Below are positions 1,184 through 62,416 of a stretch of DNA of 64,000 bases, piece after piece (the stretch's first letter is position 1; the number at the start of each line of letters is the position of its first letter). Below the pieces are notes generated by a model. It made no database searches and was not told the origin of the DNA. It was given only the letters and a program-made list of their open reading frames with translations. The DNA is taken from the sequence record OL856099. One strand, written 5' to 3'. This DNA comes from Shigella phage CWP003. The position numbers and the translations under genes were made by a program.

Positions 1184-1331
1184 ATTACCTCCGGTTTTGA
1201 GTTAATATGATTATAATGCAGAATTTCAGAAAGGCAAACTTTTTGTGAATTTAAATTAAAAAAATGGCCAGAAATAATCTGGCCAAAAAGATCACCCTTT
1301 ATCCACTACTAAGCTGGAATCATAATTTTAC

Positions 1332-7966: not shown

Positions 7967-7988
7967 GCAGGATTTTACGCGTATAATG

Positions 7989-8256
7989 ACGTATCATCCG
8001 TATCAAGTAAGTAGTTGTTTTCAAAAGAATCTTACGGATGATACGGATGATACGCGTTGCCGCGATACTTTATAGGAATTCAAATAAATTAATTTAAAAT
8101 TATATATCTAATTTAATTTTATTTTTTTATAAACTCTTATATATGAAAAGTATCCGTATCATCCGTATCATCCGTAGCACACCAGTGATAGCGCGGCTTA
8201 TACACTGATACGGATAAAAATACGCCTCATTTTATCCGTATCATCCGTATCACACT
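7989..8256. repeat. Iteron locus 1: tandem and inverted 9-mers ATCCGTATC/GATACGGAT flanking an AT-rich core
   Basis: Seen directly: TATCATCCGTATCA (7991), CTTACGGATGATACGGATGATACG (8031), AT-rich 8080-8150, GTATCCGTATCATCCGTATCATCCGTAGC (8151), TGATACGGATAAAAATACG (8206), TTATCCGTATCATCCGTATCAC (8232). Confidence 0.65.
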
Positions 8257-8309
8257 AATTAAGGCGCGGCTATATCGGTTGTTATACATATTCAAACCAT
8301 AATTATTGT

Positions 8310-8338
8310 TTGCCTAAGTTTTTTTCATTAGATATAAT
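8310..8338 (+). promoter_or_regulatory. Sigma70-like promoter (TTGCCT, 17 nt spacer, TATAAT) for the scaffold/capsid operon
   Basis: Read from sequence about 25 nt upstream of ATG 8362. Confidence 0.45.
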
Positions 8339-8361
8339 ACACAATACTTATTTGAGGGTGG

Positions 8362-9780
8362 ATGCGAATGCAAACGGCACGCGAAATTGACAAAAATGGA
8401 TTCTTGACGATTGTGGGTTGTCCCATTTCGTCATTTGGCATTTTTGATTATTCTGCAGGTCAGGTTGGACTTGATGGTGATCCGAATCGCATCGTAAAAG
8501 TTTATCGCCCAGAGTCAGCGGTGAAAGACCCCGAAGCGATAGATTCATTCAAAAATATCCCTTTCATCGACAATCACGAAATGCTTTCTGGATTCGAAGG
8601 TGATGAGGATAACACAGCACCCGAAGAGTATGGCGTTGATGGCGTTCTAACTGGCAATGTTTATTATGACAAGCCATGGATGCGCGGCGACCTTAAAGTT
8701 TTTAGCCGTCGTCTGAAGAAAGCCATCGATTCTGGAAAGGTTGACTTGTCTTTGGGCTATGACTGTGAATTCATCATACAGTCTGGAGAGTTTGACGGGC
8801 AGCCGTATGAAGTGGTACAGACAACTCTTCGCGGCAACCACATTGCTCTCGTGGACGTTGGTCGAGTACCAGGTGCACGGGTGCTGGATGGTCGTTGCTT
8901 TGACCATCTTTGTTTGACGACTGTAACACCATCCAACGAGGATTTAGACATGCCAAAACCGTTAAAAGGTAAAGCGCGTGATAATGCTGTTGAACAGCTG
9001 AAATCACTGATCCCTGCGCTCGAACAATTTCTGAATGAAGAGAGCACCGAAGCTGCTCATCAGGACGAAGTTGAAGTGAAAGCAGAAGAGAAGGATTCAA
9101 CCGAAGAACGTGAAGAAGTGATGGTTGATCCAGAAGTTAAAGCAGAAGCTGAAGAGACTCCAGAAGGTGAAGAGAAGTTTGAAGTTGAATCTGAATCTCA
9201 CGCTGGCGGCGAGCTTCCGCAACTGATCAGCCAAATCGAAGCACTTATTGCAAAACTGAAAGGTGGCGCGGTAGGTGATGAAGAAGAAGTTGAAGCCGAA
9301 GTCAAAGACGAAGAAGTTGAAGTCAAGGCTGAAGATGTATCACCTTGCGACAAAGCTGAAGATGTGGTTAGCGGCCTGCAAAACAGCAACGTAAAGGGGG
9401 CTTCGGTCGAAAAAGATGACAAACCGACAAAAGCGGCGAAAGCGTCGCCAGGTCCAGCAAAAGGGGAACACTCAATGGCATCTGATTCAGCAGTTGCTGC
9501 TTTCTACGCTGATTCTGCTCGTAAGAATAGCCTCTACCAGCGCCTGTCTAAAGTTGTTGGTGCCTTTGATCATGCAACTATGGACTCCAAGTCCGTAGCG
9601 AAATATGGCGCTAAAAAGTTAGGCTTGAAGTGCGTTGATGGTGCTGAGTTTGACGTGGTGGATAATTATCTGCGCGGCGTTGAACACGGTCAAAAACAGC
9701 GTGTAGTCGCAAAACAAAAGGCCGCTGCGGATTCTGCAGCAACTGACGAAGCATTTGAAGCTTGGTTGAAAGGGGAATAA
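8362..9780 (+). CDS. Head scaffolding protein, possibly fused to an N-terminal protease-like domain
   Basis: 472 aa; globular N-terminal domain of about 200 aa followed by a highly acidic Glu/Lys/Ala-rich helical region; position between the F-like gene and the capsid gene. Confidence 0.55.
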   Translation: MRMQTAREIDKNGFLTIVGCPISSFGIFDYSAGQVGLDGDPNRIVKVYRPESAVKDPEAIDSFKNIPFIDNHEMLSGFEGDEDNTAPEEYGVDGVLTGNVYYDKPWMRGDLKVFSRRLKKAIDSGKVDLSLGYDCEFIIQSGEFDGQPYEVVQTTLRGNHIALVDVGRVPGARVLDGRCFDHLCLTTVTPSNEDLDMPKPLKGKARDNAVEQLKSLIPALEQFLNEESTEAAHQDEVEVKAEEKDSTEEREEVMVDPEVKAEAEETPEGEEKFEVESESHAGGELPQLISQIEALIAKLKGGAVGDEEEVEAEVKDEEVEVKAEDVSPCDKAEDVVSGLQNSNVKGASVEKDDKPTKAAKASPGPAKGEHSMASDSAVAAFYADSARKNSLYQRLSKVVGAFDHATMDSKSVAKYGAKKLGLKCVDGAEFDVVDNYLRGVEHGQKQRVVAKQKAAADSAATDEAFEAWLKGE

Positions 9781-14069: not shown

Positions 14070-15608
14070 GTGATCAGTCAATCTCGTTATATTAAAATTG
14101 TATCAGGGGTCGGAGCAGGCGCGGCTGTTGCAGTTCGCAAACTGTCGCTTCGCGTCATGACTTCTAATACAGTTCTGCCGCCAGGCATTGTAGCAGAATT
14201 TTCAACGGCTGATGCTGTTGGATCATATTTCGGTTATTCTTCCGAAGAATATAAGCGCGCAGCATTATATTTTGGATTCATCAGCAAGCAAATTAACTCG
14301 CCTGATTCAATCAGCTTCTCGCGTATTGTTTCAACTGCGATTCCAGCAATGGTCATCGGTGATACTGAGCCTAAAGTGCTTGCTACGTTCCAAGCATTCA
14401 CTGGCGCTATTTTAAGCATCACTTATGATGGCACAGACTACCTGACTGACGCAATTAACCTTTCAGCAGCAACAAGTCTGGCGAATGTGGCTGAACTTCT
14501 GGAAACGGCAATCAATACTAAATTTGCAGCAGAAGGGGGCACGTCGGTGCCTGCACTTGCTGATGCAGAAGTGTATTGGAACGCTAATACTCAGCAGTTC
14601 ACGCTGGAAGCAGCGCCGTCGACCGCTGGCGCAGGCAATCTGTCTATCAACGTCACAGGCCAACCGACCGACCCGTCTCAAGCATTAGGTTGGACCACCA
14701 CTGGCACCGTAACCGTTGCAGGCCAGGGCGTTTCAAGTCCGGTAGAAGCCATCGCGGCATCTGTGGAAATCTCCAACAACTTTGGCTCATTCCTTTTTGC
14801 TGGGGCTGACCGAACTCTGGAAGAAATTACCGCTGTGGCAGCGTGGACTCATTCGCAGAATAATATGTACATGTATTTATTCTCGACTTCGTTCGCTAAT
14901 ATCGGGTCATACTACACCGCTCTGAAAGGGTACTCAGGCGTTGGCATGATGATTCGCGCAACTAACCTTGCAAACGATTACATCGACCAAGCACCTGCTG
15001 AAATCCTCGCGGCGACAAACTATAATACTGTGAATGCGACTCAAAACTACATGTATTATCAGTTTGATACTCGCAACGTGACTGTTTCAACTGACTCTCG
15101 TGCAGACACTGCTGATCAAAACCGTGCTAACTACATCGGTGCAACTCAGCAGGCCGGACAAACCTTGGCATTCTTCCAGCGCGGCGTATTGATGGGCGGG
15201 TCTACCGCAGCAGTTGACATGAATACTTATGCCAACGAGATGTGGCTTAAATCTGCTATCACTTCTCAGCTGTTCAGCATGTTCTTGAATCTTGGTCGCG
15301 TGCCTGCAAACGAAGAAGGTAAAGCGACTGTACAAGCAATGATTCAAGTTGCTGTTGACAATGCGAAGGTTAACGGCACCATCTCTGTTGGCAAGGCGCT
15401 GACTGAGATTCAGAAACAATACATCACGCAAACTTCCGGTGACAGCACTGCTTGGCGGCAGGTTGAAACTATCGGTTACTGGCTGACTGTAGATTTTGAT
15501 ACTGAAACCACTTCCGATGGGCGCACCGAATACTATGCAACATACACGCTAATCTACTCTAAAGATGATGCTGTGCGTCGCGTTGAAGGTCGTGACGTCC
15601 TTATCTAA
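14070..15608 (+). CDS. Putative tail sheath protein
   Basis: 512 aa; GTG start with AAGAGGA RBS; immediately followed by a tube-like gene. Inference from size and order only. Confidence 0.4.
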   Translation: MISQSRYIKIVSGVGAGAAVAVRKLSLRVMTSNTVLPPGIVAEFSTADAVGSYFGYSSEEYKRAALYFGFISKQINSPDSISFSRIVSTAIPAMVIGDTEPKVLATFQAFTGAILSITYDGTDYLTDAINLSAATSLANVAELLETAINTKFAAEGGTSVPALADAEVYWNANTQQFTLEAAPSTAGAGNLSINVTGQPTDPSQALGWTTTGTVTVAGQGVSSPVEAIAASVEISNNFGSFLFAGADRTLEEITAVAAWTHSQNNMYMYLFSTSFANIGSYYTALKGYSGVGMMIRATNLANDYIDQAPAEILAATNYNTVNATQNYMYYQFDTRNVTVSTDSRADTADQNRANYIGATQQAGQTLAFFQRGVLMGGSTAAVDMNTYANEMWLKSAITSQLFSMFLNLGRVPANEEGKATVQAMIQVAVDNAKVNGTISVGKALTEIQKQYITQTSGDSTAWRQVETIGYWLTVDFDTETTSDGRTEYYATYTLIYSKDDAVRRVEGRDVLI

Positions 15609-43848: not shown

Positions 43849-44844
43849 TTATTTATTAGCAATATAAGCAAATTTTTGATAGTTATTTGCTTTGATGAGT
43901 TTTTCGACTTCAACAAGGTCATGAGCGACGTCATCAAGCAAGATATTGCGCCAGGTCGCGAATCGACCGACACTAAACACGTTTAAATCCATAGTCAGCT
44001 GCAGGAGTAGGGCGTGTCGCAAGTCTTTCGGAATGTCGACAATCTTGCCATATTTCTGGTCGACCTTTTCAACTTCTTCAAGAGCAATGTCACTCCATGA
44101 AAGGCCAAAGGCCGTCAACACTTCGTCGACTTCTGCGCGCAGCTTCATGTCACGGTAACGAGTGATGCCGCCTGCGGCTTCAACTGCAGCTTCACTCACG
44201 CTGACCAAAGGAATTGTTTCAATGATAAGCGTGTCACCAGTAATTGATGCGCGGTAAGTTCTGACGGAGTAGTCAGGGAAGTAAATTGTCTGATACAAAT
44301 CACACTTACGTTTAATCTTAAAGCGGTAAACGCGAATGTTTGCTTTATCAAATGAGAAATCAAGCTTTTGATCAATTCCAGCAAGCTTCATCATGACTGG
44401 CAGCGGCGACGTGTTGATGATTGGCGTCTCGCTATAGCCGCAAAGAGTATCAACCGGAGTATTAAAGAATATGCGGTCACCCAGTTTGTCGACAAGCTGA
44501 TCATAAAAGTCATCAGGCGCAATATAACGCGTTGCAGTCTTAAGCTTCATGATTGAACGGCTGCCAAATTGATTGGTGACCTTCATGGAATACATATTGG
44601 CAAGGTTGATTGGGCAATGGTCGTGATAGTAGTTGCCGCGAAAATACACAGCCTTGTCAACTGTCACGGCCTTAAAAGGGATTCCGGTAATACGGCTTAC
44701 TTCTTCGCCGCGAAAGCGTAGCAGCGCCTTGTGCTGTTGCGCTCGTTCCCCTGCTTCGTACACAATAGAGTTCGGGAAGTGACACGCGGTGATAAGTCCT
44801 GCCAATCCGCCGCCGATAATCATTACAGGTTGTTTCATGTTCAT
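43849..44844 (-). CDS. FAD/NAD(P)-binding Rossmann-fold oxidoreductase
   Basis: 331 aa; N-terminal dinucleotide-binding motif VMIIGGGLAGL (GxGxxG). Confidence 0.6.
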   Translation of the reverse strand: MNMKQPVMIIGGGLAGLITACHFPNSIVYEAGERAQQHKALLRFRGEEVSRITGIPFKAVTVDKAVYFRGNYYHDHCPINLANMYSMKVTNQFGSRSIMKLKTATRYIAPDDFYDQLVDKLGDRIFFNTPVDTLCGYSETPIINTSPLPVMMKLAGIDQKLDFSFDKANIRVYRFKIKRKCDLYQTIYFPDYSVRTYRASITGDTLIIETIPLVSVSEAAVEAAGGITRYRDMKLRAEVDEVLTAFGLSWSDIALEEVEKVDQKYGKIVDIPKDLRHALLLQLTMDLNVFSVGRFATWRNILLDDVAHDLVEVEKLIKANNYQKFAYIANK

Positions 44845-44976
44845 TTGTCCTTTGTGGGTGATATGAGAAGTATAATAGCTAAATTATTTTACAGCAACAA
44901 GTCATTTTATTTAGTACAGATGAAAAAAGACCCACAACAAGTGTGGGTCAATTACCGCTGCATAACCGTCCTAAGG

Positions 44977-45822
44977 TTATTCCGCTTGATCACCGTCTTC
45001 GGCATCTTCGTTGGGTTCAACATCGACAAACTCGATGTGGCCCATCTCTTCCAGCTTGCTCAGGTAGGAGCGAACGGAAGCGCCAAACAGTTGATCTTTA
45101 ACTTTTTCGCCCAGCTCATCGATAGACTGCGCCACGCCAACTTCGCCTTCTTTGATCGCCGCCAGAACGCGTCCACGGGTGGAATGCTCTTGCGGCTGGC
45201 TCAGGCCATTGCCAGTGTAGATGAAGTGAGTAGCTTTTGCACGACGTTGACCGTTTGCCTTTTTAGCGGCCTTACGTTCTGCGATGGCTTTGCGACGTTC
45301 TTCAGCTTCTTTCTTACGCTGTTCTTTCTGTTGTTCTGCAGCTTCTTTCGCCGCAATCTTAGCAGCTTCACGCTCTGCCTTGCGTTTCGCTTTAGCTTCT
45401 TCTTTGGCCTTCTCTTTTTCGGCCTTCGCTGCAGCACGGGCTTGATCACGCTCTGCTTTCTTAGCAGCAGCTTGTTCAGCTTTCAGGCGCTTGGCTTCTT
45501 CTTTAGCCTTTGCCTTTTCGATTTCTTTTGCTGCTTTAGCGGCTTCACGCTCTGCTTTCTTAGCAGCAGCCTTTTCTGCACGCTCTTTAGCTTTCTTAGC
45601 TGCTTCTTCAGCACGCTTCTGAGCCTTCTCATCAGCAGCCTGCTTGCGTTTCAGGGCAGCTTCTTCACGCTTGGCTTGTTTTTCCTGCTCACGCTTCTGG
45701 CGTTTTTCTTCGGCTTCTTTCTTTTTAGCCAGACGTTTTTCTTCAGCCACGCGACGGCGTTCTGCTGCAGCTGCTTGCTTTTCTTCTTTAGATAATACTT
45801 TGATTGCTTCGGCCATATTCAC
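44977..45822 (-). CDS. Lys/Ala/Glu-rich histone H1-like protein with globular C-terminal domain
   Basis: 281 aa; about 180 residues of KAAE/KAKE-type repeats, then a globular C-terminal region and an acidic tail (EDAEDGDQAE). Confidence 0.55.
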   Translation of the reverse strand: MNMAEAIKVLSKEEKQAAAAERRRVAEEKRLAKKKEAEEKRQKREQEKQAKREEAALKRKQAADEKAQKRAEEAAKKAKERAEKAAAKKAEREAAKAAKEIEKAKAKEEAKRLKAEQAAAKKAERDQARAAAKAEKEKAKEEAKAKRKAEREAAKIAAKEAAEQQKEQRKKEAEERRKAIAERKAAKKANGQRRAKATHFIYTGNGLSQPQEHSTRGRVLAAIKEGEVGVAQSIDELGEKVKDQLFGASVRSYLSKLEEMGHIEFVDVEPNEDAEDGDQAE

Positions 45823-47524: not shown

Positions 47525-47553
47525 AGTATAATTGCAGATATAGTATAAAGCAA
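47525..47553 (-). promoter_or_regulatory. Leftward sigma70-like promoter (TTGCTT, 17 nt spacer, TATACT on the minus strand)
   Basis: Read from the reverse complement of the divergent intergenic region. Confidence 0.4.
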
Positions 47554-47589
47554 AGTAAATCGAAATTGTGAACTAAATGGTAAATATTG

Positions 47590-47617
47590 TTGACTTTGTA
47601 TCACTCAATATTATACT
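47590..47617 (+). promoter_or_regulatory. Rightward sigma70-like promoter (TTGACT, 16 nt spacer, TATACT)
   Basis: Read from sequence about 30 nt upstream of ATG 47647, with AAGGAAAG RBS. Confidence 0.45.
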
Positions 47618-47646
47618 GCAGGTATTGATCACCGAAGGAAAGAAAG

Positions 47647-49902: not shown

Positions 49903-50038
49903 TAGTTCACCAGTTATATTGCTTTAAACTGAGTTTTACTATATTAATATACAACGCCAGATTTCTGGCGTTTATTTACCGCACCCTGAAAGGATATATC
50001 CATGCAACAATATAACAAAGCCGTATCAGGAGGATTAA

Positions 50039-51709
50039 ATGTCAATTGAACATGACAATCTTCCAGAGGATACAGGTGATGAATTTGGTGCAATCTTTGA
50101 CGAAATTCAAGACGCTGGTGTTTCAGAAGAAATGCAAGCGGCAGAGCAGCAAGGCACCAGAGCTAAAATCAGCCTACAGCACAAGGCTGTTGAGAAAGAT
50201 GCAGAGCGCATGGAATGCTACGGTGAAGAAGACTTGGTTGAAAGAGCACGTTTGCTCGCCTCACTTCAGGTAATCAAGTTCCCTCATTATAAACCGACGA
50301 AAGATGATTTTGTTCTTCAGGCGGACCGGACGAGTGACATGAACCGTTATGCGGTTTTCGACGCGTTGTTTGATAAGGGAAGCGGCATCGTCCCATTCCC
50401 TCACAAAGATACTTTTCGTGGACGCTTAGTCGACCATCGCGGCGAAACATTCACCGACCGGACGTTGGAAGTCACAGAGATAGTTGCCGCTGTCGATGCA
50501 GCAGGCCTGTCCAACCCAAACTCACGTCAGGTCGCTCAATCCTATAAGGAATGGGCCATGCGTTATCAGCGCGACGACCTGATGGACTTCTTCTACAAGA
50601 AGCTTCCTGAATGGGACGGTACTGCGCGCATTGAGAAATACCTTATCGAGCTATTCCGACCGTTCGATACAGAGTTAAACCGACAAATCGGTGTGTATTT
50701 TTGGCTATCGCTCTATAACCGCCTGACCAACCCTGGCTGTCAAGCGCCAATCTCCATCGCGCTCATCGGCGGCCAGAACGCAGGGAAGAGTTATTTTAGT
50801 AAGCTGCTTTGCGAAGCTATTATGAACGACCGCCACGCAACACCGATTCCGTTGAACTTGGCCGCGCAGAACTTCAACCCGTTCTTGCGAGCTATTACGG
50901 GTCGCTCAATTATCGCGAACGTTGGCGAGATGACGGGCTTTAAAAAGGCCGACATCGAAAACATGAAGGCATTCCTGACTAAGACGGAAGATGACCTGGA
51001 CTTCAAATTTGAAGACACGCAGGTCAAACCACGCCAGTGGATTGCTATCATGGACGGCAACGAATACGCAGGCATGCAGCGTGACGATACGGGCAACCGT
51101 CGTGTGTATCCTATCTTTGTTGGCCAACTCGCCGACAAGGACGGGCAACCGAACTGGTCAAAAGACTTCCAAGCTGACCTTTCCACTTTGAAAGAAGACG
51201 TTTGGCAACTGATGGCTGAGTGTGCTGCGTGGATGGAGAAGCACGGCGAAGCAGGTTACAACGCGTTTGTCGGTGAAACGTCTCGCATGCTTACTGAGTT
51301 CAGTAAGAACGAAATGGAACGCGCTCGCGGCGTTATCCGTGATGAGATGGTCGACAACGACCTTGTTGAAGTCGTCATTACCGCGCCTTATGACCGACAT
51401 CACAGCGGACGCTGGCACATCACCAGTGGTGCAATCGCTATGGGATTCAGAGCTAAGTGCGGCAAGTCGCCTTTCTCACGTACCCTTGCGCCGCACATGT
51501 CGAAGCTTGGATTTGAGCCTGCAACCTATCGCAACCAGCGCGGCTACTTTACGCCGCTGATTAAGAATGAAGCAGGGGAATACATTTCTGACTTGATGAC
51601 TATCTTAGCGTATCTTATTCGCGACGAGTCTGACCCTGAAGATATTGAATTCTTGAAGAAGGTTATTGAACGCAAACGTTCTTTAGGAAGAGATAAGGAT
51701 GAATTCTGA
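50039..51709 (+). CDS. VirE/D5-like P-loop NTPase (primase-associated helicase)
   Basis: 556 aa; central Walker A IGGQNAGKS with a downstream acidic Walker B-like stretch. Confidence 0.65.
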   Translation: MSIEHDNLPEDTGDEFGAIFDEIQDAGVSEEMQAAEQQGTRAKISLQHKAVEKDAERMECYGEEDLVERARLLASLQVIKFPHYKPTKDDFVLQADRTSDMNRYAVFDALFDKGSGIVPFPHKDTFRGRLVDHRGETFTDRTLEVTEIVAAVDAAGLSNPNSRQVAQSYKEWAMRYQRDDLMDFFYKKLPEWDGTARIEKYLIELFRPFDTELNRQIGVYFWLSLYNRLTNPGCQAPISIALIGGQNAGKSYFSKLLCEAIMNDRHATPIPLNLAAQNFNPFLRAITGRSIIANVGEMTGFKKADIENMKAFLTKTEDDLDFKFEDTQVKPRQWIAIMDGNEYAGMQRDDTGNRRVYPIFVGQLADKDGQPNWSKDFQADLSTLKEDVWQLMAECAAWMEKHGEAGYNAFVGETSRMLTEFSKNEMERARGVIRDEMVDNDLVEVVITAPYDRHHSGRWHITSGAIAMGFRAKCGKSPFSRTLAPHMSKLGFEPATYRNQRGYFTPLIKNEAGEYISDLMTILAYLIRDESDPEDIEFLKKVIERKRSLGRDKDEF

Positions 51710-53801: not shown

Positions 53802-54079
53802 TGAATAAAGATACCTTCAACGAAAGATTGGCGAAATTTGAAAAAGAGCAAGGTGAAAGGCCGTTAAAAGTACGTTTGAATGTTGATAGAAATTACGGTT
53901 TGGACATTCAGACTTATAGCTTGTGGCTGGTAGGTCGTTCGAGCTTTGACGATGCATTAATAATGGGAGTTGACACGCTTTTCTTAGAAAGATTTAAAAG
54001 CAATAAAAAGGCTATCGATTGCTTATCACGATATGAAAAATGGCTTGTTAAGTATTATAAAGAACGGGAGAATGTATAA
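53801..54079 (+). CDS. Hypothetical small protein
   Basis: In frame with track ORF 53687..54079; start placed at the ATG overlapping the upstream stop. Confidence 0.4.
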   Translation: MNKDTFNERLAKFEKEQGERPLKVRLNVDRNYGLDIQTYSLWLVGRSSFDDALIMGVDTLFLERFKSNKKAIDCLSRYEKWLVKYYKERENV

Positions 54080-54315
54080 TGGAAGATTATATTAATTCTA
54101 TGTACATGGCATTCTATGTCGTGCAACTTCCCAATGGCGCGGTATTTTATGGCGAGTATACCTTTGACGTTCAATATGACGTCTCAGAGCGTACAGTGTT
54201 AACAAGGGAGTTGATTGCGGACCTTAAGGACGACATCAAGCGCGTCGCGCGGCAGCAGTTCAATTTGGATGACACCGTCATCGTTCGAATTACCGGAATA
54301 ACAGAGGTGCAGTGA
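54079..54315 (+). CDS. Hypothetical small protein
   Basis: Track ORF. Confidence 0.4.
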   Translation: MEDYINSMYMAFYVVQLPNGAVFYGEYTFDVQYDVSERTVLTRELIADLKDDIKRVARQQFNLDDTVIVRITGITEVQ

Positions 54316-54644
54316 TGACCCGTGATCAGATACTCGCCGCGCATGAGCGTGGGTTGATAAAGGAAGTGTGGAAGAAGGCCAATGCCTTTGCTGATTCTTA
54401 TTACTTCTTAAAGAAGTGCATCAAGCAAAACGCAAAGATGGATAACACTGTATTGACATTCAACCTTTTGTCTAACGGAGCGAAGCTTGATGCAATATGC
54501 GGTTGCAGAATTGCCAGTGTGATGTTTGAACGAGGTGCTCACAAAGACTCTTTCTTCTATCAATTCTCTCACCGGACGGGTGATACAAAGATAACAAGGA
54601 CGCGTGAAGAGCTGGAGATTGACCTACTCCACTATGTAAAATGA
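54312..54644 (+). CDS. Hypothetical small protein
   Basis: Track ORF, followed by a terminator. Confidence 0.45.
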   Translation: MMTRDQILAAHERGLIKEVWKKANAFADSYYFLKKCIKQNAKMDNTVLTFNLLSNGAKLDAICGCRIASVMFERGAHKDSFFYQFSHRTGDTKITRTREELEIDLLHYVK

Positions 54645-54650
54645 ATATCA

Positions 54651-54683
54651 AAAAGGTGAGCTAAATGCTTGCCTTTTCTTTTA
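54651..54683 (+). terminator. Intrinsic terminator (AAGGUGAGC stem, UAAAU loop, U-run), copy 1 of a repeated terminator-promoter cassette
   Basis: 9-bp stem with two G-U wobbles followed by TTTTCTTTT; near-identical copy at 56164. Confidence 0.55.
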
Positions 54684-54697
54684 TCAATACTTATACT
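54669..54697 (+). promoter_or_regulatory. Promoter overlapping the terminator (TTGCCT, 17 nt spacer, TATACT)
   Basis: -35 lies inside the terminator 3' stem; same TTGCCT -35 as the scaffold promoter at 8310. Confidence 0.4.
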
Positions 54698-54729
54698 CTT
54701 TTCATCAAGACTAACAAGCGAGGTGAATT

Positions 54730-54978
54730 ATGGAACGTTATATAGATGCAGAGTGCTTGATAAGTGCAGGTTTGAATGAGGCTGTAGAAGGAAGTAAATA
54801 TGCCATCTGTCAATCTGATTATCCGTACAAAGATACTTTTTGGATTGAATTTGGATCAAAAGGGAGTAAGCACCACGTCACTTATGACGTTTGGAAAGCA
54901 CCAAGCGGACTTTTTTACATTTTAAAACGTCATTGCCAGCCAGAGTCAGGCGCATTGGCCATATTCAAGGAGGTGTGA
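54730..54978 (+). CDS. Hypothetical small protein
   Basis: Track ORF with GAGGTGA RBS. Confidence 0.45.
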   Translation: MERYIDAECLISAGLNEAVEGSKYAICQSDYPYKDTFWIEFGSKGSKHHVTYDVWKAPSGLFYILKRHCQPESGALAIFKEV

Positions 54979-54980
54979 TT

Positions 54981-55298
54981 ATGATTTACTTAGGCATCGA
55001 CAAGGAACAAGACGAGCGGTTAGGAAGCGTATTAAACGTGGACTTAAACACATCTGTACACATCAAGCCTTGGCCAGAGGCGCACCCCGACGTAGTTGTA
55101 CCCGTTGCGCCTTGGGCGCGTTACGTTGCCATTGACAATGATGGACTTGTCCATTGTTACTCAGAAAAGCCGACATACTTCGAAAAGTATCACCAATGGC
55201 TTATGACTGGATGGGCATTGGTGCGCTGTTGCGGCGAAGTCGGTCTGGAAGGCTGGAGCTTCGAGGCCAGTGAATCGTGTGTCGAGGTGCAATTATGA
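54981..55298 (+). CDS. Hypothetical small protein
   Basis: Start ATG 54981 (AAGGAGGTG RBS) in frame with track ORF 54891..55298. Confidence 0.45.
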   Translation: MIYLGIDKEQDERLGSVLNVDLNTSVHIKPWPEAHPDVVVPVAPWARYVAIDNDGLVHCYSEKPTYFEKYHQWLMTGWALVRCCGEVGLEGWSFEASESCVEVQL

Positions 55299-55513
55299 AT
55301 GCCGCGCTGGGTAAGTTGTCTTTTAACAAGCGCAATGAGCTGCGCATGGTATCGCGCTTTCAACAAACGCATTTATCACTAATCAAGATTGCAAACAAGG
55401 CCTACTCTCTAAATTGTCCTGAAGAAGAATGGAAAGAATTGAATGAGCGTCGTAAACAATTACAAAAGGCTGCATTCAAGCTGCAGCAATATGCTATGGA
55501 GTATGCAAAATGA
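55295..55513 (+). CDS. Hypothetical small protein
   Basis: Start ATG 55295 in frame with track ORF 55277..55513. Confidence 0.4.
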   Translation: MNAALGKLSFNKRNELRMVSRFQQTHLSLIKIANKAYSLNCPEEEWKELNERRKQLQKAAFKLQQYAMEYAK

Positions 55514-55902
55514 GAATGAAACGTTGCCCGTATTGCCACGATGTGATGCGTCTATCACACGAAGGATTTGTTAATCACATGAATGGCTGTGATAAGAATC
55601 CTAGAAATGAAAGCAACCTTGAAGAAAGAATGTTTCTGGTGTCATTCAAGTATTCAGCTTATGACGCGCAACTGGCTTACGGTGCGAGCGGTGCACCAAG
55701 TGCTATTAACTGCCCAACGACATTGAGAAGTGACATCGACTCAATCCAACTTGCGGCTTGGATTAACGTTAAGGAAGGAATCACGCCGCACTTTATCGCG
55801 CGCATCCAATCCCAGATTCTACAAATCAAGCGCGAATACAACCGTGACATCACTGAAGTGAAGGTGCTTTCCATTACGCCGATGAATAAGGAGTTGCCGT
55901 GA
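55510..55902 (+). CDS. Small protein with N-terminal zinc-finger-like motif
   Basis: CPYCHDV...HMNGC near the N-terminus. Confidence 0.4.
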   Translation: MRMKRCPYCHDVMRLSHEGFVNHMNGCDKNPRNESNLEERMFLVSFKYSAYDAQLAYGASGAPSAINCPTTLRSDIDSIQLAAWINVKEGITPHFIARIQSQILQIKREYNRDITEVKVLSITPMNKELP

Positions 55903-56159
55903 ACAAGGGTCCGATGACTAAGTTAGCCGTTGCCGCGCGGAAGCTTCGACAAGCCGTTAATGGGTCGCGGCCCGTGGTGTTAACACTCGACGATGCAAAG
56001 GCACTGGTAGAGCTACTCGACGAGCACAACCGACGCAAGAATCTGGAGAACACATTACGCTGGCGCGTCACTCCAGCCGGGCGGGAGAGCGAGAAGAAAG
56101 CTTACTTGCGACGCAAACTAAGGTCAGTCGGCCTCCACGAAGAGGCGAAGAAGATTTGA
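55899..56159 (+). CDS. Hypothetical small basic protein
   Basis: Track ORF followed by terminator copy 2. Confidence 0.4.
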   Translation: MNKGPMTKLAVAARKLRQAVNGSRPVVLTLDDAKALVELLDEHNRRKNLENTLRWRVTPAGRESEKKAYLRRKLRSVGLHEEAKKI

Positions 56160-56163
56160 TTCA

Positions 56164-56196
56164 AAAAGGTGAGCTAAATGCTTGCCTTTTTATTTA
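56164..56196 (+). terminator. Intrinsic terminator, copy 2 of the repeated cassette
   Basis: Same stem-loop as 54651..54683 followed by TTTTTATTT. Confidence 0.55.
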
Positions 56197-56209
56197 CCTG
56201 TATTATACT
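56182..56209 (+). promoter_or_regulatory. Promoter overlapping terminator copy 2 (TTGCCT, 16 nt spacer, TATACT)
   Basis: Read from sequence. Confidence 0.4.
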
Positions 56210-56237
56210 TATTTCATCAAGCAAAGGAGAATTGATT

Positions 56238-56543
56238 ATGAGTTATGACGAAAGGTTTGGCAGAAGCGGATTATTTCATGACGCTGTACACAAAGACAGC
56301 CAAGATGTTGTCTGCGTAGCATTTAATGAATCTTATTACGGCGTGTTCAAGCCGTTTAAGGTCGGTGAGACATACGAATTGTTTCACGGCTGGTTGACGC
56401 GTCGCAACAACTTGCCTGATATGGAAGTATGGTGGATAGAATACAAGGGTCAGGCTCATCGGTGCAAAGTTGTAGAGATGCACGGCGTCAAATACTATCA
56501 ATCTATTATCAGCGGCTTTGTTTTTAAAGAGGGTGAGCTATGA
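56238..56543 (+). CDS. Hypothetical small protein
   Basis: Start ATG 56238 (AAGGAGA RBS); track ORF 56178..56543 begins inside the terminator loop and is probably too long. Confidence 0.45.
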   Translation: MSYDERFGRSGLFHDAVHKDSQDVVCVAFNESYYGVFKPFKVGETYELFHGWLTRRNNLPDMEVWWIEYKGQAHRCKVVEMHGVKYYQSIISGFVFKEGEL

Positions 56544-56845
56544 GTACAGAAGCAATGAAGAAAAAGGTTTTGAACGCTTTGCAAGAAGCCGTGAACTGTG
56601 GTGCCATTAAAACGTTCACAGAAAGGAACGTCGGTGAAGTGACGGTGCACGGATTTAACAATAACAAAAATGGAATTGCAGCCATCATGCTTTTAAAGAA
56701 TAGCGATGACACATTCATCCTTTACGTTGGCGGATATGAGCTTATCGTTGATGATTTGTTTATCACTTGCGCTGACGGCCTTAACCCGATGTTAACGTTC
56801 GAGCGTCGCGGCATCCGTGTTGCAACATTTGGAGGGAAGTTATGA
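56540..56845 (+). CDS. Hypothetical small protein
   Basis: Track ORF. Confidence 0.4.
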   Translation: MSTEAMKKKVLNALQEAVNCGAIKTFTERNVGEVTVHGFNNNKNGIAAIMLLKNSDDTFILYVGGYELIVDDLFITCADGLNPMLTFERRGIRVATFGGKL

Positions 56846-57027
56846 GTACCGAAGTCCACAACGCATCAGCCTTGGTAAGCTTTTACCGTAACAAAGGCGT
56901 GTCGCTCGTTAAAACGCCGCAAGGGATGTTGTTCTTTGGCACGCGATTCCTGAAAGCATCGGAGCGTGAAACGCTGTCCAAGTTCGACCAGAAAACATTA
57001 CACGCAGTTTGGAGAAGACAACAATGA
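56842..57027 (+). CDS. Hypothetical small protein
   Basis: Track ORF. Confidence 0.35.
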   Translation: MSTEVHNASALVSFYRNKGVSLVKTPQGMLFFGTRFLKASERETLSKFDQKTLHAVWRRQQ

Positions 57028-57537: not shown

Positions 57538-58043
57538 AAATCGAACAACTCGAAGCAGTATTGGAAATGGCCGTAAAGGCAGGCGCAATCAAAAGCTATC
57601 GTCGCGAGAAGTCAGATAGCGACAGGGTGTTTTGTCGCAACTTCTATATCGTCGGCAACCTTAACGACCACTACGCCATCGAGTGGTATATTAACATAAT
57701 GACCCTTAAGTCGCGCACAATGGAGCTTTGGTGCGATGACATCTGTCTTTCGAATACTCACCCAAGCTATGATGTCGCCCTGGCATTCTATCACGGAAGC
57801 CGTCAACCTGTCGCCCACATCGGTGAGAAGCATGAGCATCTTAAGGCGCAACCAGAGGAATCAATGGAAGGCTGGATTGAATGGGCTGGCGGCGAGAATC
57901 CGGTGCCTGGTAAGAAGGTCAAGTATAAGTTGCGCGACGGCGATGAATCAAGAAAGCCTGTTCTTTCAGATGATTTGAGATGGGAGATGGTTGACGATTC
58001 TTATGCAGCTGACATCATCGCTTATCGCGTCGTGGAGGAATGA
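57534..58043 (+). CDS. Early protein with conserved C-terminal W-x2-W-GGENPVPG...DIIAYRVV module
   Basis: Shares a C-terminal module of about 55 aa with 58927..59502. Confidence 0.5.
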   Translation: MKIEQLEAVLEMAVKAGAIKSYRREKSDSDRVFCRNFYIVGNLNDHYAIEWYINIMTLKSRTMELWCDDICLSNTHPSYDVALAFYHGSRQPVAHIGEKHEHLKAQPEESMEGWIEWAGGENPVPGKKVKYKLRDGDESRKPVLSDDLRWEMVDDSYAADIIAYRVVEE

Positions 58044-58943: not shown

Positions 58944-59502
58944 TGTTGATTATTGCACGCAGCACGCTTGCACATGCGAAGTTGTAAAGGATGATGAAGG
59001 CGGCTATGTTGAATATGAGGACTATGCCGCGTTGGAAGCGAAATACAGTGAAGTAAAAAGTCGCGTCGAGCTGGAAGCGAAACATAGTGAAGTTAAAACG
59101 TATGCAGTAAACTGCAACGACGCGTGGCTTAATACAAAGGGTGATGACACCTCTGGTTCATATGTCAAGTTTTCTGATTATGCCGCGCTGGAAGCGAAAT
59201 ATAGTGAAGCGCAACGCGAGTTGGTTGCATTACGCTCACAGGTCCGTGATGCATCGGCGCTCGTTAAGCAGTTGCACGATGTTGTTGCTACTATAGTCGT
59301 GGATGTTGATGCGCCGAAGGAAGAAGCGTGGACCGTGTGGCACGGTGGAGAGAATCCGGTGCCTGGGGAAATGGTTGAATACAAGCTGCGCAATGGAGAA
59401 GATAAAGTGCTGTCAAGACTCTCTGACCATCTTCACTGGGGTCATATAGGCGCGTTAAAGGGCAGCGACATCATCGCTTATCGGGTCGTTAAGGAGGGGT
59501 GA
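58927..59502 (+). CDS. Early protein with internal DYAALEAKYSE repeats and the shared C-terminal module
   Basis: Three copies of (E/S)DYAALEAKYSE-like repeats; C-terminus WTVWHGGENPVPGEMVEYKLRNGED...DIIAYRVVKEG. Confidence 0.5.
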   Translation: MIQRYDVDYCTQHACTCEVVKDDEGGYVEYEDYAALEAKYSEVKSRVELEAKHSEVKTYAVNCNDAWLNTKGDDTSGSYVKFSDYAALEAKYSEAQRELVALRSQVRDASALVKQLHDVVATIVVDVDAPKEEAWTVWHGGENPVPGEMVEYKLRNGEDKVLSRLSDHLHWGHIGALKGSDIIAYRVVKEG

Positions 59503-60035: not shown

Positions 60036-60300
60036 AGAACACTGTATTGCGTGTTTTGAATAATGGGATGTGTACAATTGGTCGCTTTACGCGGCCTTTT
60101 GTTGTTGTTTGGGTCGTGTTTCGTGATTGAATAATTATGAGGCGATGTTTTATTTATTAATTGTGCGGAAATATTTAGAAATATATATAGACAGGATTGT
60201 TAATATTTTAATAGTGTATGGCTATCGGTCCGTGGTGTTTGTTAGGAATTATCTATGGATTGAAATTTTAGTGTCGTGAAACGTGGTGTTTGAACATATT

Positions 60301-60660
60301 TGATACGCGTAAAATACGGCTAAAAATTAAGCGTATCATGGCTGCAGGCCGCGCCGTTCCTGGATTCCTCTTTTCCAAATTGGTACACCCTTACGTCATG
60401 ATACGTCATGGTTTTTTATCCGTATCAGTGTACAGCCCTTGCCGCGCCTGGCTTGTACATTAATCTTACGGATGATACGGATAAAACTGGGCATCGTTAT
60501 ATATATAATTTGAAAAATTAATTAACTCCATTTTGAATTAATTTAAATTAATTTTTTTCTACATCCTCATACTTATGTTAATTTATATATAACGTATTAT
60601 CCGTAAGATATAAGTAAAAACAAAGACTTGCGGCAATACGGATGATACGTCATGATACGC
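60301..60660. repeat. Iteron locus 2: GATACGGAT/ATCCGTATC and GATACGTCATG repeats around an AT-rich core; shares a 21-mer with locus 1
   Basis: Seen directly: ACGTCATGATACGTCATGG, TTTTATCCGTATCAG, AATCTTACGGATGATACGGAT (identical to 8029-8049), AT-rich 60490-60590, TTATCCGTAAGAT, CAATACGGATGATACGTCATGATACGC. Confidence 0.65.
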
Positions 60661-60835: not shown

Positions 60836-60887
60836 GTTCAATCATTATATAATTCACACTATTAATTTGCACTATGGGATTTGCACT

Positions 60888-61361
60888 ATGAGTCAAGATT
60901 ATGTAGCAATGCCTGAAGACTTTGAAGACCCGCGATTTGCAGAGCATAATCAGGCATTATTCGATGAGTTCATCGACCTTGTTATTCAGGGCCATGACAT
61001 GCGCGCAGCTTTTGCACTAGTATTTGGCATGGAGGTTGCGACCGATAACTACACTGGCCAGCGAATCCTGTGCACTCAGCGCAATCCGTACTACAAGATG
61101 CGCTACAAAAAGCGTATGGAAGAGATGCCATTGAAGGAATTGTGGAGCGTAAAGAGTTCCATTCACAATTTAGTGAAGCTTGTGCGTGATCCAGAAGTCG
61201 CAGCATCAGCCAAGCTTAATGCCATTCGTGAACTGAATATCATCTACGGCATTACGATGATTGATGAAAACGGCAATAGTAAAATGGGCCGTTCCATGGA
61301 TGATTTCTACAAGGATTTTGGAGAGGCGGCCAAAGAGGGTGAGCAATTCTCCCGCCACTAG
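60888..61361 (+). CDS. Small helical DNA-binding-like protein (possible regulator or small terminase-like protein)
   Basis: 157 aa from ATG 60888 in frame with track ORF 60693..61361; central stretch IDLVIQGHDMRAAFALVFGMEVATDNYTGQRIL reads as an HTH-like segment. Functional call speculative. Confidence 0.4.
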   Translation: MSQDYVAMPEDFEDPRFAEHNQALFDEFIDLVIQGHDMRAAFALVFGMEVATDNYTGQRILCTQRNPYYKMRYKKRMEEMPLKELWSVKSSIHNLVKLVRDPEVAASAKLNAIRELNIIYGITMIDENGNSKMGRSMDDFYKDFGEAAKEGEQFSRH

Positions 61362-61380
61362 CCAATTTGCACTATAAAAC

Positions 61381-61414
61381 GGCCCTAGAACACATTTTCT
61401 CCACTTCTAGGGCC
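61381..61414. other. Perfect 10-bp hairpin (GGCCCTAGAA...TTCTAGGGCC, 14-nt loop) just after a motif copy
   Basis: Seen in sequence; no U-run follows on the plus strand. Confidence 0.4.
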
Positions 61415-61475
61415 ATCGGTAATACGACGGGGAAGGCTGCAACCATAAACGCGTTAGAAAGTGTATTATTATAAG

Positions 61476-61739
61476 TCATCTTTTAGTCACTTTACGTAAC
61501 AATTTACGACCTTCCGCCGTCCAGTCGAACGACTCCACCAGCAAATTTGCACTATAACCTAAGACGATGCGCCCTTTCTCGTTATCTACCCGCCAACAAG
61601 TCTCAAATAGCATTCGATTTGCACTATTAACTATCGCCGCAACGCGCGTTGGGTAAGCGCAATTTGCACTATGGTCATAAAGGGATAAGGTGCGACCACT
61701 TCCGATGGACAACGTAGCGATGAGAATAAGCGTATTCAT
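61476..61739 (-). CDS. Possible small ORF overlapping three motif copies (each read as Ser-Ala-Asn)
   Basis: Track ORF; GGTGG RBS before the ATG; coding status uncertain because the repeated motif dominates. Confidence 0.3.
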   Translation of the reverse strand: MNTLILIATLSIGSGRTLSLYDHSANCAYPTRVAAIVNSANRMLFETCWRVDNEKGRIVLGYSANLLVESFDWTAEGRKLLRKVTKR

Positions 61740-61789
61740 AAGCCACCAATTTGCACTATGAAAAGCGACCCCGAAGGGCCGCCATTCGA

Positions 61790-62416
61790 TTAGATAATCT
61801 GGAAGGTGTAGGACTTGTTGCCGAACTCGAAGTTCAAGCGTCCCGCTTCTTTAAGCTTCATGCGGAAGCGAATGTGCTTGCTATCCGGTAAGCCCAGCGC
61901 GGCGAACGCTACGCGGACTGATTTGAACTCGCCTACACCCTCGACCATAACGGCGTTACGGGTGAGACGCTTTTGCGCCACTTCCTTGTTATCCCAACTT
62001 TTTGCAATACCTTCGCTATTCGAACGGCGATGGGAAGGAGTTCCATTTTGCACTACGCAACTTGCACTATCGTTTAGGCCGCTTTTAACGAAGGCTTCAT
62101 ACTCTTCGTCGGTCATCGCGTCGAGTTCTTCCTGGGTCGGCTCGGCCTTTTTGACGACCGCACGCGCCTTATGCGTTTTTACATCGCTGGACACTTCCTC
62201 GCGCGGCTTCGCGTCTGGGATGGGCGATTCGTTGGACGGCTCATCGAGCGCGTTTAAGGACTCGATTAACGCGATTACGCGAGTCTCGGCGGTCCGGCGG
62301 TCCGCAAACTTCTTAATCGGTTTTGAGCCGGAATTTGCATTATAGAATGCAACGAGGTCGGCGGTCTTAGTTGCGATAACGTCGCCGCTAGTAGAAAAGC
62401 GATTTAAGCTAACCAT
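61790..62416 (-). CDS. Hypothetical protein (basic/acidic mixed), CpG-rich codon usage
   Basis: 208 aa track ORF; TAGGAG RBS 7 nt before the ATG; contains motif copies at 62048, 62062 and 62335. Confidence 0.5.
   Translation of the reverse strand: MVSLNRFSTSGDVIATKTADLVAFYNANSGSKPIKKFADRRTAETRVIALIESLNALDEPSNESPIPDAKPREEVSSDVKTHKARAVVKKAEPTQEELDAMTDEEYEAFVKSGLNDSASCVVQNGTPSHRRSNSEGIAKSWDNKEVAQKRLTRNAVMVEGVGEFKSVRVAFAALGLPDSKHIRFRMKLKEAGRLNFEFGNKSYTFQII

Follow-up and report, generated by a model that had tools for sequence, protein, structure and literature searches.

A repeated terminator-promoter element as candidate transcriptional punctuation in a Wifcevirus small-gene array

Two spacers in a rightward array of small genes of Shigella phage CWP003 (OL856099) carry the same short non-coding element, which raises the question of what such a unit does between genes that are otherwise unrelated. 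The stretch of DNA analysed here (the window, 64,000 nt) comes from the genome of about 68 kb of a Wifcevirus, an E. coli myovirus that is distantly related to Pbunavirus, has no T4-like affiliation and is placed in the family Lindbergviridae by one GenBank record. We consider it likely that both elements serve as compact marks of transcriptional punctuation, a terminator followed by a sigma-70 promoter, in an array that is presumably expressed early. Direct reading of both spacers located the two elements where the original prediction had placed them, and repeat searches and alignment delimited them as follows:

54645–54729, plus strand: cassette copy 1, the full intergenic spacer from TGA 54642–54644 to ATG 54730
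56160–56237, plus strand: cassette copy 2, the full intergenic spacer from TGA 56157–56159 to ATG 56238

An exact 32-nt repeat (TCAAAAAGGTGAGCTAAATGCTTGCCTTTT) begins at 54648 and at 56161, and the 28-nt core of this repeat has two matches against 0.00 expected. The copies had been described as near-identical over about 80 bp, which is an overstatement: identity is about 84% from the hairpin to the start site, 64 of 88 aligned columns agree overall, and the 5′ leaders differ. Each copy contains a hairpin followed by a U-run:

54650–54682, plus strand: predicted terminator hairpin of copy 1, beginning with an A-tract; arms 54653–54661 and 54667–54675, loop 54662–54666, U-run 54674–54682
56163–56195, plus strand: predicted terminator hairpin of copy 2; arms 56166–56174 and 56180–56188, loop 56175–56179, U-run 56187–56195

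The arms read AAGGTGAGC (5′) and GCTTGCCTT (3′) in both copies and enclose the 5-nt loop TAAAT, giving a core stem of 9 bp, or of 11–12 bp with A-U extension, and the U-runs directly 3′ of the stems are TTTTCTTTT in copy 1 and TTTTTATTT in copy 2. The plus-strand RNA folds at −13.7 kcal/mol (z = −4.98) in copy 1 and −14.7 kcal/mol (z = −4.46) in copy 2, and none of 200 shuffled controls folded as stably; the minus-strand folds are weaker (−9.3 and −9.7 kcal/mol) and hold an internal loop. A terminator scan lists the copy 1 hairpin and missed that of copy 2, because there the extended A-U pairing consumes the T-run, and ARNold terminators are annotated at both orthologous sites in the GenBank records of the relatives WFH and WFC. 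Both copies have the stem plus U-run by which intrinsic (Rho-independent) terminators are predicted; since the stem is of moderate strength (ARNold energy −10.1 kcal/mol), termination may be partial. An Rfam scan of 54400–56500 returned no known RNA family, the one match, to MicX, being at chance level (17.6 bits, where the gathering score is 75). Several GenBank records put start codons inside the hairpin loop.

The 3′ arm of each hairpin contains, as had been proposed, a TTGCCT hexamer (at 54669 and 56182) that reads as the −35 box of a promoter, with the following elements downstream:

54669–54697, plus strand: putative sigma-70-type promoter of copy 1; −35 TTGCCT 54669–54674, N17, −10 TATACT 54692–54697
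54701–54709, plus strand: start block TTCATCAAG of copy 1, common to both copies; predicted start A54704, 7 nt past the −10 hexamer
54720–54732, plus strand: ribosome-binding site GAGGTG and ATG of the first gene past copy 1, read from the sequence
56182–56209, plus strand: putative sigma-70-type promoter of copy 2; −35 TTGCCT, N16, −10 TATACT from 56204
56213–56240, plus strand: start block TTCATCAAG of copy 2 with predicted start A56216, ribosome-binding site AAGGAG 56224–56229 and ATG 56238

TTGCCT matches TTGACA at 4/6 positions and TATACT matches TATAAT at 5/6 (9/12 together), and the predicted starts at A54704 and A56216 lie 26 and 22 nt, respectively, ahead of an ATG with its ribosome-binding site. 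The hexamers, their spacing (17 and 16 nt, within the usual 16–18 nt), their placement and the conservation of the boxes over the spacer are those expected of a sigma-70 promoter. None of the inspected records of relatives marks these promoters, although the terminators are already annotated in WFH and WFC. Hairpin and promoter share bases at a cost: full complementarity to the 5′ arm would require GCTCACCTT, from which the actual 3′ arm differs at two positions, and these two changes yield the TTG of the −35 box at the price of two G·U wobbles. The arms are consequently non-complementary at 2 of 9 positions in DNA and pair there, as G·U, in the plus-strand RNA only; it is because of these wobble pairs that the 3′ arm is able to read TTG.

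An alternative interpretation is that the elements are terminators and nothing else, with TTGCCT and TATACT fortuitous in an AT-rich spacer and the downstream genes expressed by read-through. A general consensus promoter scan of the region is indeed near background (34 promoter-like sites versus 28 expected), the annotators of WFH and WFC marked just terminators, and at least one other array terminator, at about 49955, is followed by no recognisable promoter, so read-through does occur. We nevertheless consider this interpretation highly improbable, because the specific pattern TTGCYT-N16-18-TATAMT, of which TTGCCT is one variant, occurs at 11 sites in the whole window against 0.09 expected, an enrichment of about 100-fold, and most of these sites are well placed, with a ribosome-binding site and ATG about 20–45 nt downstream. 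Moreover, TATACT and its spacing are invariant in 40/40 cassette copies while adjoining spacer bases vary, and TTCATCAAG, kept in both copies, recurs past TATACT in the promoters of another phage. The latter is represented by contig L090, which came from a viral-contig scan anchored on TATACTnnnTTCATCAAG that was too unspecific in itself (>120 matches); this contig bears two promoters of T5 style that have the −10/start module in common with the cassettes, and the phage collection contains no near relative of it. The canonical TTGACA version of the consensus has no site in the window, and the 11 sites are conserved in relatives (11/11 in WFH, 10/11 in Bas99).

This enrichment upholds part of the idea of a phage-specific promoter class. 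In the sense of a non-host class the idea is not supported, since the sites have the architecture of a host sigma-70 promoter. The consensus is also present ahead of structural genes such as those for the head protease and the baseplate spike, and is therefore no marker of an early class. One such site had served as the comparison for the prediction:

8310–8338, plus strand: TTGCCT-N17-TATAAT, candidate promoter ahead of the gene for the head maturation protease, from sequence and annotation

The sequence at 8310 is as had been described, but its designation as the scaffold promoter was wrong, since the gene downstream is annotated as the head maturation protease. Across 201 aligned bases (8230–8430) the window, WFH and Bas99 show four differences, none of them within this promoter. 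A reading of TTGCTT as a T4 MotA box was rejected on spacing: a MotA box is about 12 nt away from the −10 hexamer, and the equivalent distance here is about 14–16 nt. The order terminator, then promoter, recurs in the genome in five pairs, namely the two cassettes and three with unrelated hairpins, among them:

1210–1315, minus strand: separate pair; hairpin GGCCAGA...TCTGGCC plus T7 and, 27 nt later, TTGCCT-N16-TATAAT
44800–44979, minus strand: further pair; hairpin GACCCACA...TGTGGGTC plus T-run, then TTGCTG-N17-TATACT

The pair at 1210–1315, whose hairpin is unrelated to the cassettes, is conserved in WFH; the corresponding region of Bas99 is not homologous.

The original prediction had named absence from relatives as evidence against the elements; both copies were found in 28/28 Wifcevirus records, with two sequence-related copies, and two only, in every one. 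Copy 1 is 96–100% identical across all 28 records, and the nucleotide diversity of the cassettes is 3 to 10 times below that of neighbouring genes (copy 1, 0.005–0.05 versus 0.15–0.45 in upstream genes; copy 2, 0.02–0.04 versus 0.08–0.21 upstream), making them conservation peaks inside a highly mosaic region. In a footprint sample of 40 cassette copies, the −35 box, the −10 box and TTCATCAAG are unchanged in 40/40, and the variable parts are the loop, spacer, discriminator and leader; for copy 1, whose hexamers were compared in 20 genomes, both boxes are invariant in 20/20 while three spacer positions vary, each in one genome. The 18 core stem positions carry one substitution, an unpaired one in copy 2 of SP13, so that the stem is invariant in 39/40 copies; the A-tract is shorter by one base in three copies, and the loop variants TATAT and TAAGT occur in 5/40. 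Because the stem is too conserved for compensatory changes, its base pairing is supported by fold energy and by the difference in variation between stem and loop, and not by covariation. The terminator-plus-promoter reading is to this extent supported by the hairpin energies, the ARNold calls in WFH and WFC and the sigma-70-like footprint in 40 copies. Outside the genus, a search of IMG/VR viral contigs for the hairpin returned only known Wifcevirus genomes and one 68.5-kb metagenomic contig that aligns across this region, and a search of 5,426 E. coli genomes gave no match. The only non-Wifcevirus BLAST matches, in Asteriusvirus jumbo phages, are generic terminators with perfect stems, located where genes converge, and were rejected as homologues.

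The 32-nt block is so close to invariant that a protein-binding site would fit as well, and we therefore considered that the imperfect palindrome AAAAAGGTGAGC-TAAAT-GCTTGCCTTTTT, which covers the −35 box, is an operator at which a dimeric regulator of phage or host switches both promoters, the RNA hairpin being incidental. The block is nearly invariant in the 40 copies even at most loop bases and at non-complementary positions, which exceeds what a hairpin needs; overlap with the −35 box is a classic repressor position, and two copies would permit coordinated control. We regard an operator as very unlikely all the same, because the mismatched arm positions pair in plus-strand RNA and not in DNA, because a terminator-like U-run directly follows the palindrome and because the loop does vary. 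Much of the invariance is already accounted for by the double duty of stem and −35 box together with short divergence times. No candidate regulator was identified, and the neighbouring genes belong to no known family.

The anatomy of the sequence, its fold, the pattern of conservation and the enriched consensus are direct results; under the preferred reading of terminator then promoter, we infer from them termination, initiation, their efficiencies and their timing. Polymerase arriving from upstream would transcribe the hairpin and U-run, and a fraction would terminate inside the DNA spacer of the next promoter; host sigma-70 RNA polymerase would then initiate about 20 nt further on, at A54704 or A56216, by way of TTGCCT and TATACT. 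The same bases would thereby serve as −35 hexamer and as 3′ arm of the stem, and the gene blocks 54730–56159 and 56238 to about 60080 would each receive their own short-leader mRNAs. By analogy with T5 P33/PN25 and with the promoters of Pbunavirus 14-1, the host holoenzyme probably initiates without phage factors.

How the array acquired two copies is a further question, and it involves the genes that the cassettes frame:

54730–56159, plus strand: module of five small genes between the two cassettes, from the ORF list
54733–54965, plus strand: inserted small gene (ORF 54730–54978, 82 aa), from genome comparison and junction sequences

The module has a single PHROG match, itself of unknown function, and among relatives its length ranges from 1252 to 2700 nt, with gene replacements found at both cassettes. 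The inserted gene separates the cassette-1 promoter from the usual first gene, and its edges are a repeated ribosome-binding-site/ATG motif; the 82-aa ORF is missing in 19/19 compared relatives, EC150 being its only carrier. The proteins flanking copy 1 are unrelated, and not paralogous, to those flanking copy 2. Duplication of the cassette along with adjoining genes was rejected on this ground, and the cassette would, for the same reason, have been duplicated as an intergenic unit.

Such an origin invites the interpretation that, besides its regulatory part, the cassette is a preferred crossover point for the insertion, loss and swapping of small modules between co-infecting Wifceviruses, possibly through a circular intermediate that might form between the two direct copies. 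Several junctions agree with it. A 195-nt gene in WFC, SP13 and Bas100 has on both sides a 21-nt direct repeat (AAATGAATATCAAAAAGGTGA) equal to the 5′ edge of cassette 1, and in RCIP0319 a 1.4-kb insert of three genes has a hairpin-arm look-alike (GGTGAGGTAAAT) on one side and a full cassette 2 on the other. These two independent insertions in relatives begin at the hairpin 5′ arm, and partial cassettes form their bounds. Past cassette 2, at least four different genes are present across genomes, with homology breaking at 56241–56243, no more than 5 nt from the start codon, and in comparisons of the window with WFH and OZ035737 identity is 100% in the gene ahead of cassette 1, against 10% divergence in the gene past it. 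The duplication is limited to the intergenic element, without flanks, and the crossover mechanism is documented for PeSLs (promoter-early stem-loop cassettes) of T4-type phages (PMC2839356, PMC4122927). Yet the mosaicism extends beyond the cassettes: almost all gene boundaries have breakpoints, the distance matrices of neighbouring genes show no correlation at any cassette-free junction (r = −0.06 to 0.28), and the highest such correlation (0.68) is the one across cassette 2. The window's own insertion used the ribosome-binding-site/ATG repeat instead of the hairpin, the inter-cassette module is lost in none of 28 records, and there are only two sequence-related copies where T4-like phages have dozens. 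As a test for a recombination hot spot, the distance-matrix correlations gave no cassette-specific signal, and mosaicism occurs at every gene junction; we regard the crossover-point interpretation as possible though doubtful. A stronger version is, in our judgement, unlikely: that the cassette is a portable regulatory linker and preferred crossover site whose AAGGTGA 5′ arm, a Shine-Dalgarno look-alike, recombines with incoming ribosome-binding sites, and which spread as an intergenic unit, as the duplication of the spacer alone between unrelated genes would imply. If true, it would carry PeSL-type shuffling of mobile cassettes beyond T4-like phages into a myovirus lineage unrelated to them.

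Whatever their origin, the elements offer a clean case of one DNA stretch that encodes both the arm of a terminator and a −35 box, the compromise being G·U wobbles, and within the accessory-gene array they would delimit two short units of transcription. The literature searched contained no Wifcevirus transcript data and no promoter or transcriptome work, and TTGCYT-N16-18-TATAMT, often followed by TTCAT, is to that extent a first promoter consensus for these phages, a genus of phage-therapy interest for which very fast replication has been reported.

Among known systems, Pbunavirus 14-1, a distant relative, has 26 sigma-70-like promoters mapped by ONT-cappable-seq; reporter assays in E. coli and P. 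aeruginosa showed activity for the ones that were tested (PMC10914365). The T5 early promoter PN25, annotated as 'putative early promoter T5P33' and as a repeated element ('repeat c') at AY587007.1:63117-63186, reads TTGCTT-N17-TATAAT-AGA-TTCAT in the T5 genome record, the same layout as in the cassette promoters; however, the sequence read has no terminator hairpin over the −35 box and no homology past the consensus boxes. A literature search on TTGCTT with 'T5 promoter' found nothing. Asteriusvirus terminators (AAAAGGAGAGC-loop-GCTCTCCTTTT) resemble the cassette hairpin in their A-tract, 9-bp G+C-containing stem, 5-nt loop and T-run, but they are perfect palindromes between convergent genes and lack a promoter, whereas here two wobble positions give the 3′ arm its −35 hexamer and the hairpin its strand specificity.

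The closest analogue is the PeSL cassette of T4-like phages described by Arbiol et al. (2010; PMC2839356) and Comeau et al. (2014; PMC4122927). There, as here, a stem-loop and an early sigma-70-like promoter fill the spacer from the stop codon to the Shine-Dalgarno sequence and ATG (PMC4122927, PMC2839356), among small variable genes of unknown function; the PeSL stem may likewise overlap promoter boxes and hold G-T pairs, indels are bounded by whole or half cassettes, and the nt-1/KVP40 version combines an A3-4G3...C3T3-4 stem with a −35 box, TTGYVH, that TTGCCT fits. The differences are that the present phage is a Wifcevirus and not T4-like, that it carries two sequence-related copies and three unrelated pairs in place of dozens, and that its recombination is not demonstrably concentrated at the cassettes. 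Current understanding is left intact by these findings; the locus is a tidy PeSL-like example, resembling the known T4-like cassettes, and it suggests that punctuation of this kind extends past the T4-like phages.

The stretch at 54000-57000 matched 28 phage records by megablast, all of them Wifcevirus at 85-95% identity (including ECML-117, WFH, WFC, FEC19, vB_Eco4M-7 and BASEL Bas98-101), a genus of E. coli myoviruses of ~68 kb with ~3.7-kb terminal repeats, to which Pseudomonas Pbunavirus is distant kin. It lies in a rightward array of primase genes and numerous small genes of unknown function, running from a divergent promoter region near 47550-47620 to a terminator near 60080, and this array holds two cassettes that each make up a whole intergenic spacer, with a TGA directly before it:

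54645-54729, plus strand, cassette 1, terminator hairpin and putative promoter
56160-56237, plus strand, cassette 2, terminator hairpin and putative promoter

The two repeated elements of the original prediction were borne out by an exact 32-nt repeat, TCAAAAAGGTGAGCTAAATGCTTGCCTTTT, starting at 54648 and 56161, whose 28-nt core gave 2 matches where 0.00 were expected. Both copies carry, as predicted, a hairpin with a U-run: stem arms AAGGTGAGC and GCTTGCCTT enclose the loop TAAAT, with TTTTCTTTT (copy 1) or TTTTTATTT (copy 2) directly 3' of the stem, and the folding energies of -13.7 and -14.7 kcal/mol (z = -5.0 and -4.5) were equalled by 0 of 200 shuffled controls. The claimed TTGCCT -35 was likewise found within the 3' arm, at 54669 and 56182, followed after 17 (copy 1) or 16 (copy 2) bases by TATACT and, 3 bases downstream of this -10 hexamer, by TTCATCAAG, common to both copies. 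The position of TTCATCAAG places predicted purine starts at A54704 and A56216, 26 and 22 nt upstream of ribosome-binding-site/ATG pairs. Describing the copies as near-identical over 80 bp was somewhat generous, since 64 of 88 aligned spacer columns are common to both, with strong agreement from hairpin to start site and weak agreement in the leaders.

The stem and the -35 share bases. The perfect complement of AAGGTGAGC is GCTCACCTT, from which the real 3' arm differs at two positions, and from these differences arises TTG, the most important portion of the -35 hexamer. Both positions form G·U wobbles in plus-strand RNA and C·A mismatches in minus-strand RNA, where the fold contains an internal loop and weakens to -9.3 and -9.7 kcal/mol. 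The hairpin is thus specific to one strand, which favours a function in the transcribed RNA over a symmetric DNA site. An operator for a DNA-binding regulator would account for the extreme sequence invariance and the overlap with the -35, but we disfavour it because the pairing is strand-specific and a U-run is present; no candidate regulator was found for an operator reading.

Far from being absent from relatives, the outcome named as counting against the original prediction, the elements occupy both places in all 28 Wifcevirus records: a 96-nt cassette 1 query found 2 sites in each, at 96-100% identity compared with 85-90% for neighbouring genes. The region was retrieved from 19 relatives, both copies were located in every one, and the resulting footprint comprises 40 cassettes. 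Nucleotide diversity in cassette 1 was 0.005-0.05, compared with 0.15-0.45 for the genes upstream of it, and in cassette 2 it was 0.02-0.04, compared with 0.08-0.21. The 18 core stem positions showed a single substitution (SP13 copy 2), the A-tract was one base shorter in 3/40 cassettes, and the -35, the -10 and TTCATCAAG were invariant; the variable parts were the loop (TATAT, TAAGT; 5/40 copies), spacer, discriminator and leader. Judged from sequence, this is the footprint expected for a hairpin joined to a sigma-70 promoter. The 40 cassettes offer no covariation, as no stem change is matched by a compensating one. In GenBank, the WFH and WFC records list a terminator at each of the two hairpins (ARNold, -10.1 kcal/mol); the relatives' records inspected carry no promoter annotation at these sites, and the papers we found do not mention one either.

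In some GenBank records, open reading frames have been called from these spacers. The copy 2 hairpin loop holds an ATG (56178), and its equivalent is where kaset_CDS0079 and vBEco4M7_08 start the post-cassette-2 gene, ~60 nt upstream of the ATG paired with the conserved ribosome-binding site; Bas98_0076 and Bas99_0075 are 93-nt ORFs called across cassette 1. If the cassette promoter is real, transcription would begin downstream of these start codons, which have then probably been annotated wrongly.

A pattern search like that proposed earlier found TTGCCT-N15-18-TATAMT at 5 sites in the window against 0.06 expected. TTGNNN-N16-18-TATAMT occurred at 20 sites, TTGCTG accounting for 1 and TTGCYT for 11 (0.09 expected); the canonical TTGACA version occurred at 0 sites in the window. 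This roughly 100-fold enrichment, together with stronger conservation of the boxes than of the spacer between them, leads us to disfavour the view that the cassettes are terminators only. The appearance of such an element as a terminator alone is shown by Asteriusvirus jumbo phage hairpins (AAAAGGAGAGC-loop-GCTCTCCTTTT), which look alike but are perfect palindromes between convergent genes, without a promoter. A ribosome-binding site and ATG lie roughly 20-45 nt downstream of most TTGCYT sites, which are kept in WFH (11/11) and Bas99 (10/11). The genes that follow serve both replication and structure (portal/minor head protein, head maturation protease, baseplate spike), so the consensus does not mark early genes; the TTGCCT at 8310 is present, although the gene after this supposed scaffold promoter encodes the head maturation protease. 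We regard as weak candidates site 10248, within a coding region and without independent support, and site 14291, inside a plus-strand structural-gene block:

14264-14291, minus strand, TTGCTT-N16-TATAAT, matching Bas99 12896 within the tail sheath gene, kept in WFH and Bas99

The latter may promote antisense transcription, or else have arisen by chance and been kept by coding constraint. What stands of the suggested phage-specific promoter class is a phage-characteristic -35 flavour; the geometry is that of sigma-70, not of a non-host class. In the distantly related Pbunavirus 14-1, ONT-cappable-seq identified 26 sigma-70-like promoters and a second class of 11 with a phage-specific motif, and those sigma-70-like promoters that were tested were active in E. 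coli (PMC10914365).

Similar and further motifs were noted elsewhere. An unrelated 111-kb phage contig with a tRNA gene (IMGVR_UViG_3300020109_000007; L090), for which the phage collection held no close relative, has two promoters, at 494-511 and 824-841, reading TTGACT-N17-TATACT-GAG-TTCATCAAGA, the same -10/start module as in the Wifcevirus cassettes. The window itself also holds:

60863-62343, minus strand, 10 clustered copies of ATAGTGCAAATTG (<=2 mismatches; 11 in the window against 2.9 expected)
7987-8251, both orientations, six 18-nt double units of the 9-mer iterons GATACGGAT / ATCCGTATC (7 against 0.02 expected)
60465-60482, the seventh iteron unit

Several ATAGTGCAAATTG copies lie directly 3' of annotated terminators, and in WFH the stretch falls within a ~3.5-kb sequence duplicated at both record ends; by analogy with the non-sigma-70 class of 14-1, it is a candidate second, phage-specific promoter or regulatory motif. 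The six iteron units occupy a 420-bp intergenic region that adjoins, upstream, the head protease promoter TTGCCT-N17-TATAAT, and may serve either as binding sites for a regulator or as origin-like repeats.

We infer termination and initiation at the cassettes, their efficiencies and the 'early' timing. Upstream transcripts would stop at the hairpin and U-run, probably in part only, the release point would fall inside the next promoter's spacer, and host RNA polymerase would begin a fresh short-leader mRNA for the following gene block. Other terminators stand with or without promoters, their hairpins unrelated in the three pairs:

1315-1210, minus strand, terminator-promoter pair
~30839-30664, minus strand, terminator-promoter pair
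44979-44800, minus strand, terminator-promoter pair
~49955-50040, terminator-like hairpin CGCCAGATTTCTGGCG and T-run immediately before the large primase gene

At least one terminator, that at ~49955, is thus followed by no recognisable promoter, so read-through must occur; primase expression would rely on it, which suggests that the array terminators are attenuators. The cassette pair is special in that the stem overlaps the -35 and that, since the proteins flanking the two copies are unrelated, it was duplicated as an intergenic unit.

In T4-like phages, hyperplastic regions contain promoter-early stem-loops (PeSLs), spacers that combine a terminator with a promoter, mediate indels and give rise to mini-circles (PMC2839356, PMC4122927). 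The Wifcevirus cassettes might likewise be crossover sites, and several observations agree with this. WFC, SP13 and Bas100 have a 195-nt gene that lies between 21-nt direct repeats formed by the 5' edge of cassette 1, and at its left junction the hairpin arm AAGGTGA is joined to TTTATG, so that the arm acts as its Shine-Dalgarno sequence; RCIP0319 has a 1.4-kb insert flanked by GGTGAGGTAAAT and a complete cassette 2; at least 4 different genes follow cassette 2, with a homology break at 56241-56243; window and WFH are 100% identical upstream of cassette 1 and 10% divergent downstream; and an extra gene directly follows cassette 1 in the window and EC150, the second of two small insertions relative to the 19 relatives aligned:

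53804-54066, first insertion
54733-54965, 82-aa ORF common only to EC150 (96% amino-acid identity), lying after the cassette-1 promoter and ahead of the gene that usually comes first, its edges a repeated ribosome-binding-site/ATG motif

However, adjacent-gene distance matrices were uncorrelated at all cassette-free junctions (r = -0.06 to 0.28), the top correlation (0.68) spans cassette 2, and breakpoints fall at almost all gene boundaries; on sequence comparison, the array is a gene-by-gene mosaic in which no preference of crossovers for the cassettes is evident. Farther downstream, at 57867-57946 / 59323-59402, 58011-58039 / 59467-59495 and 59005-59209, diverged direct repeats of 70-90% identity, 1456 nt apart, and a 49-nt repeat family suggest paralogous gene duplication inside the array.

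The observation is confirmed and its interpretation partly supported. The terminator annotation was already known; the promoter half, the wobble-pair dual coding, the spacer-only duplication and the genus-wide consensus are new, and are modest additions. The T5 early promoter PN25 (annotated T5P33, 'repeat c'), checked in the T5 record, reads TTGCTT-N17-TATAAT-AGA-TTCAT, and the nearest described system is the PeSL cassette. By analogy, the Wifcevirus cassette appears to work as the terminator/promoter cassettes of the PeSL type do, with a sigma-70 promoter in the style of T5, although its copy number and host lineage set it outside the PeSL family of T4 phages.
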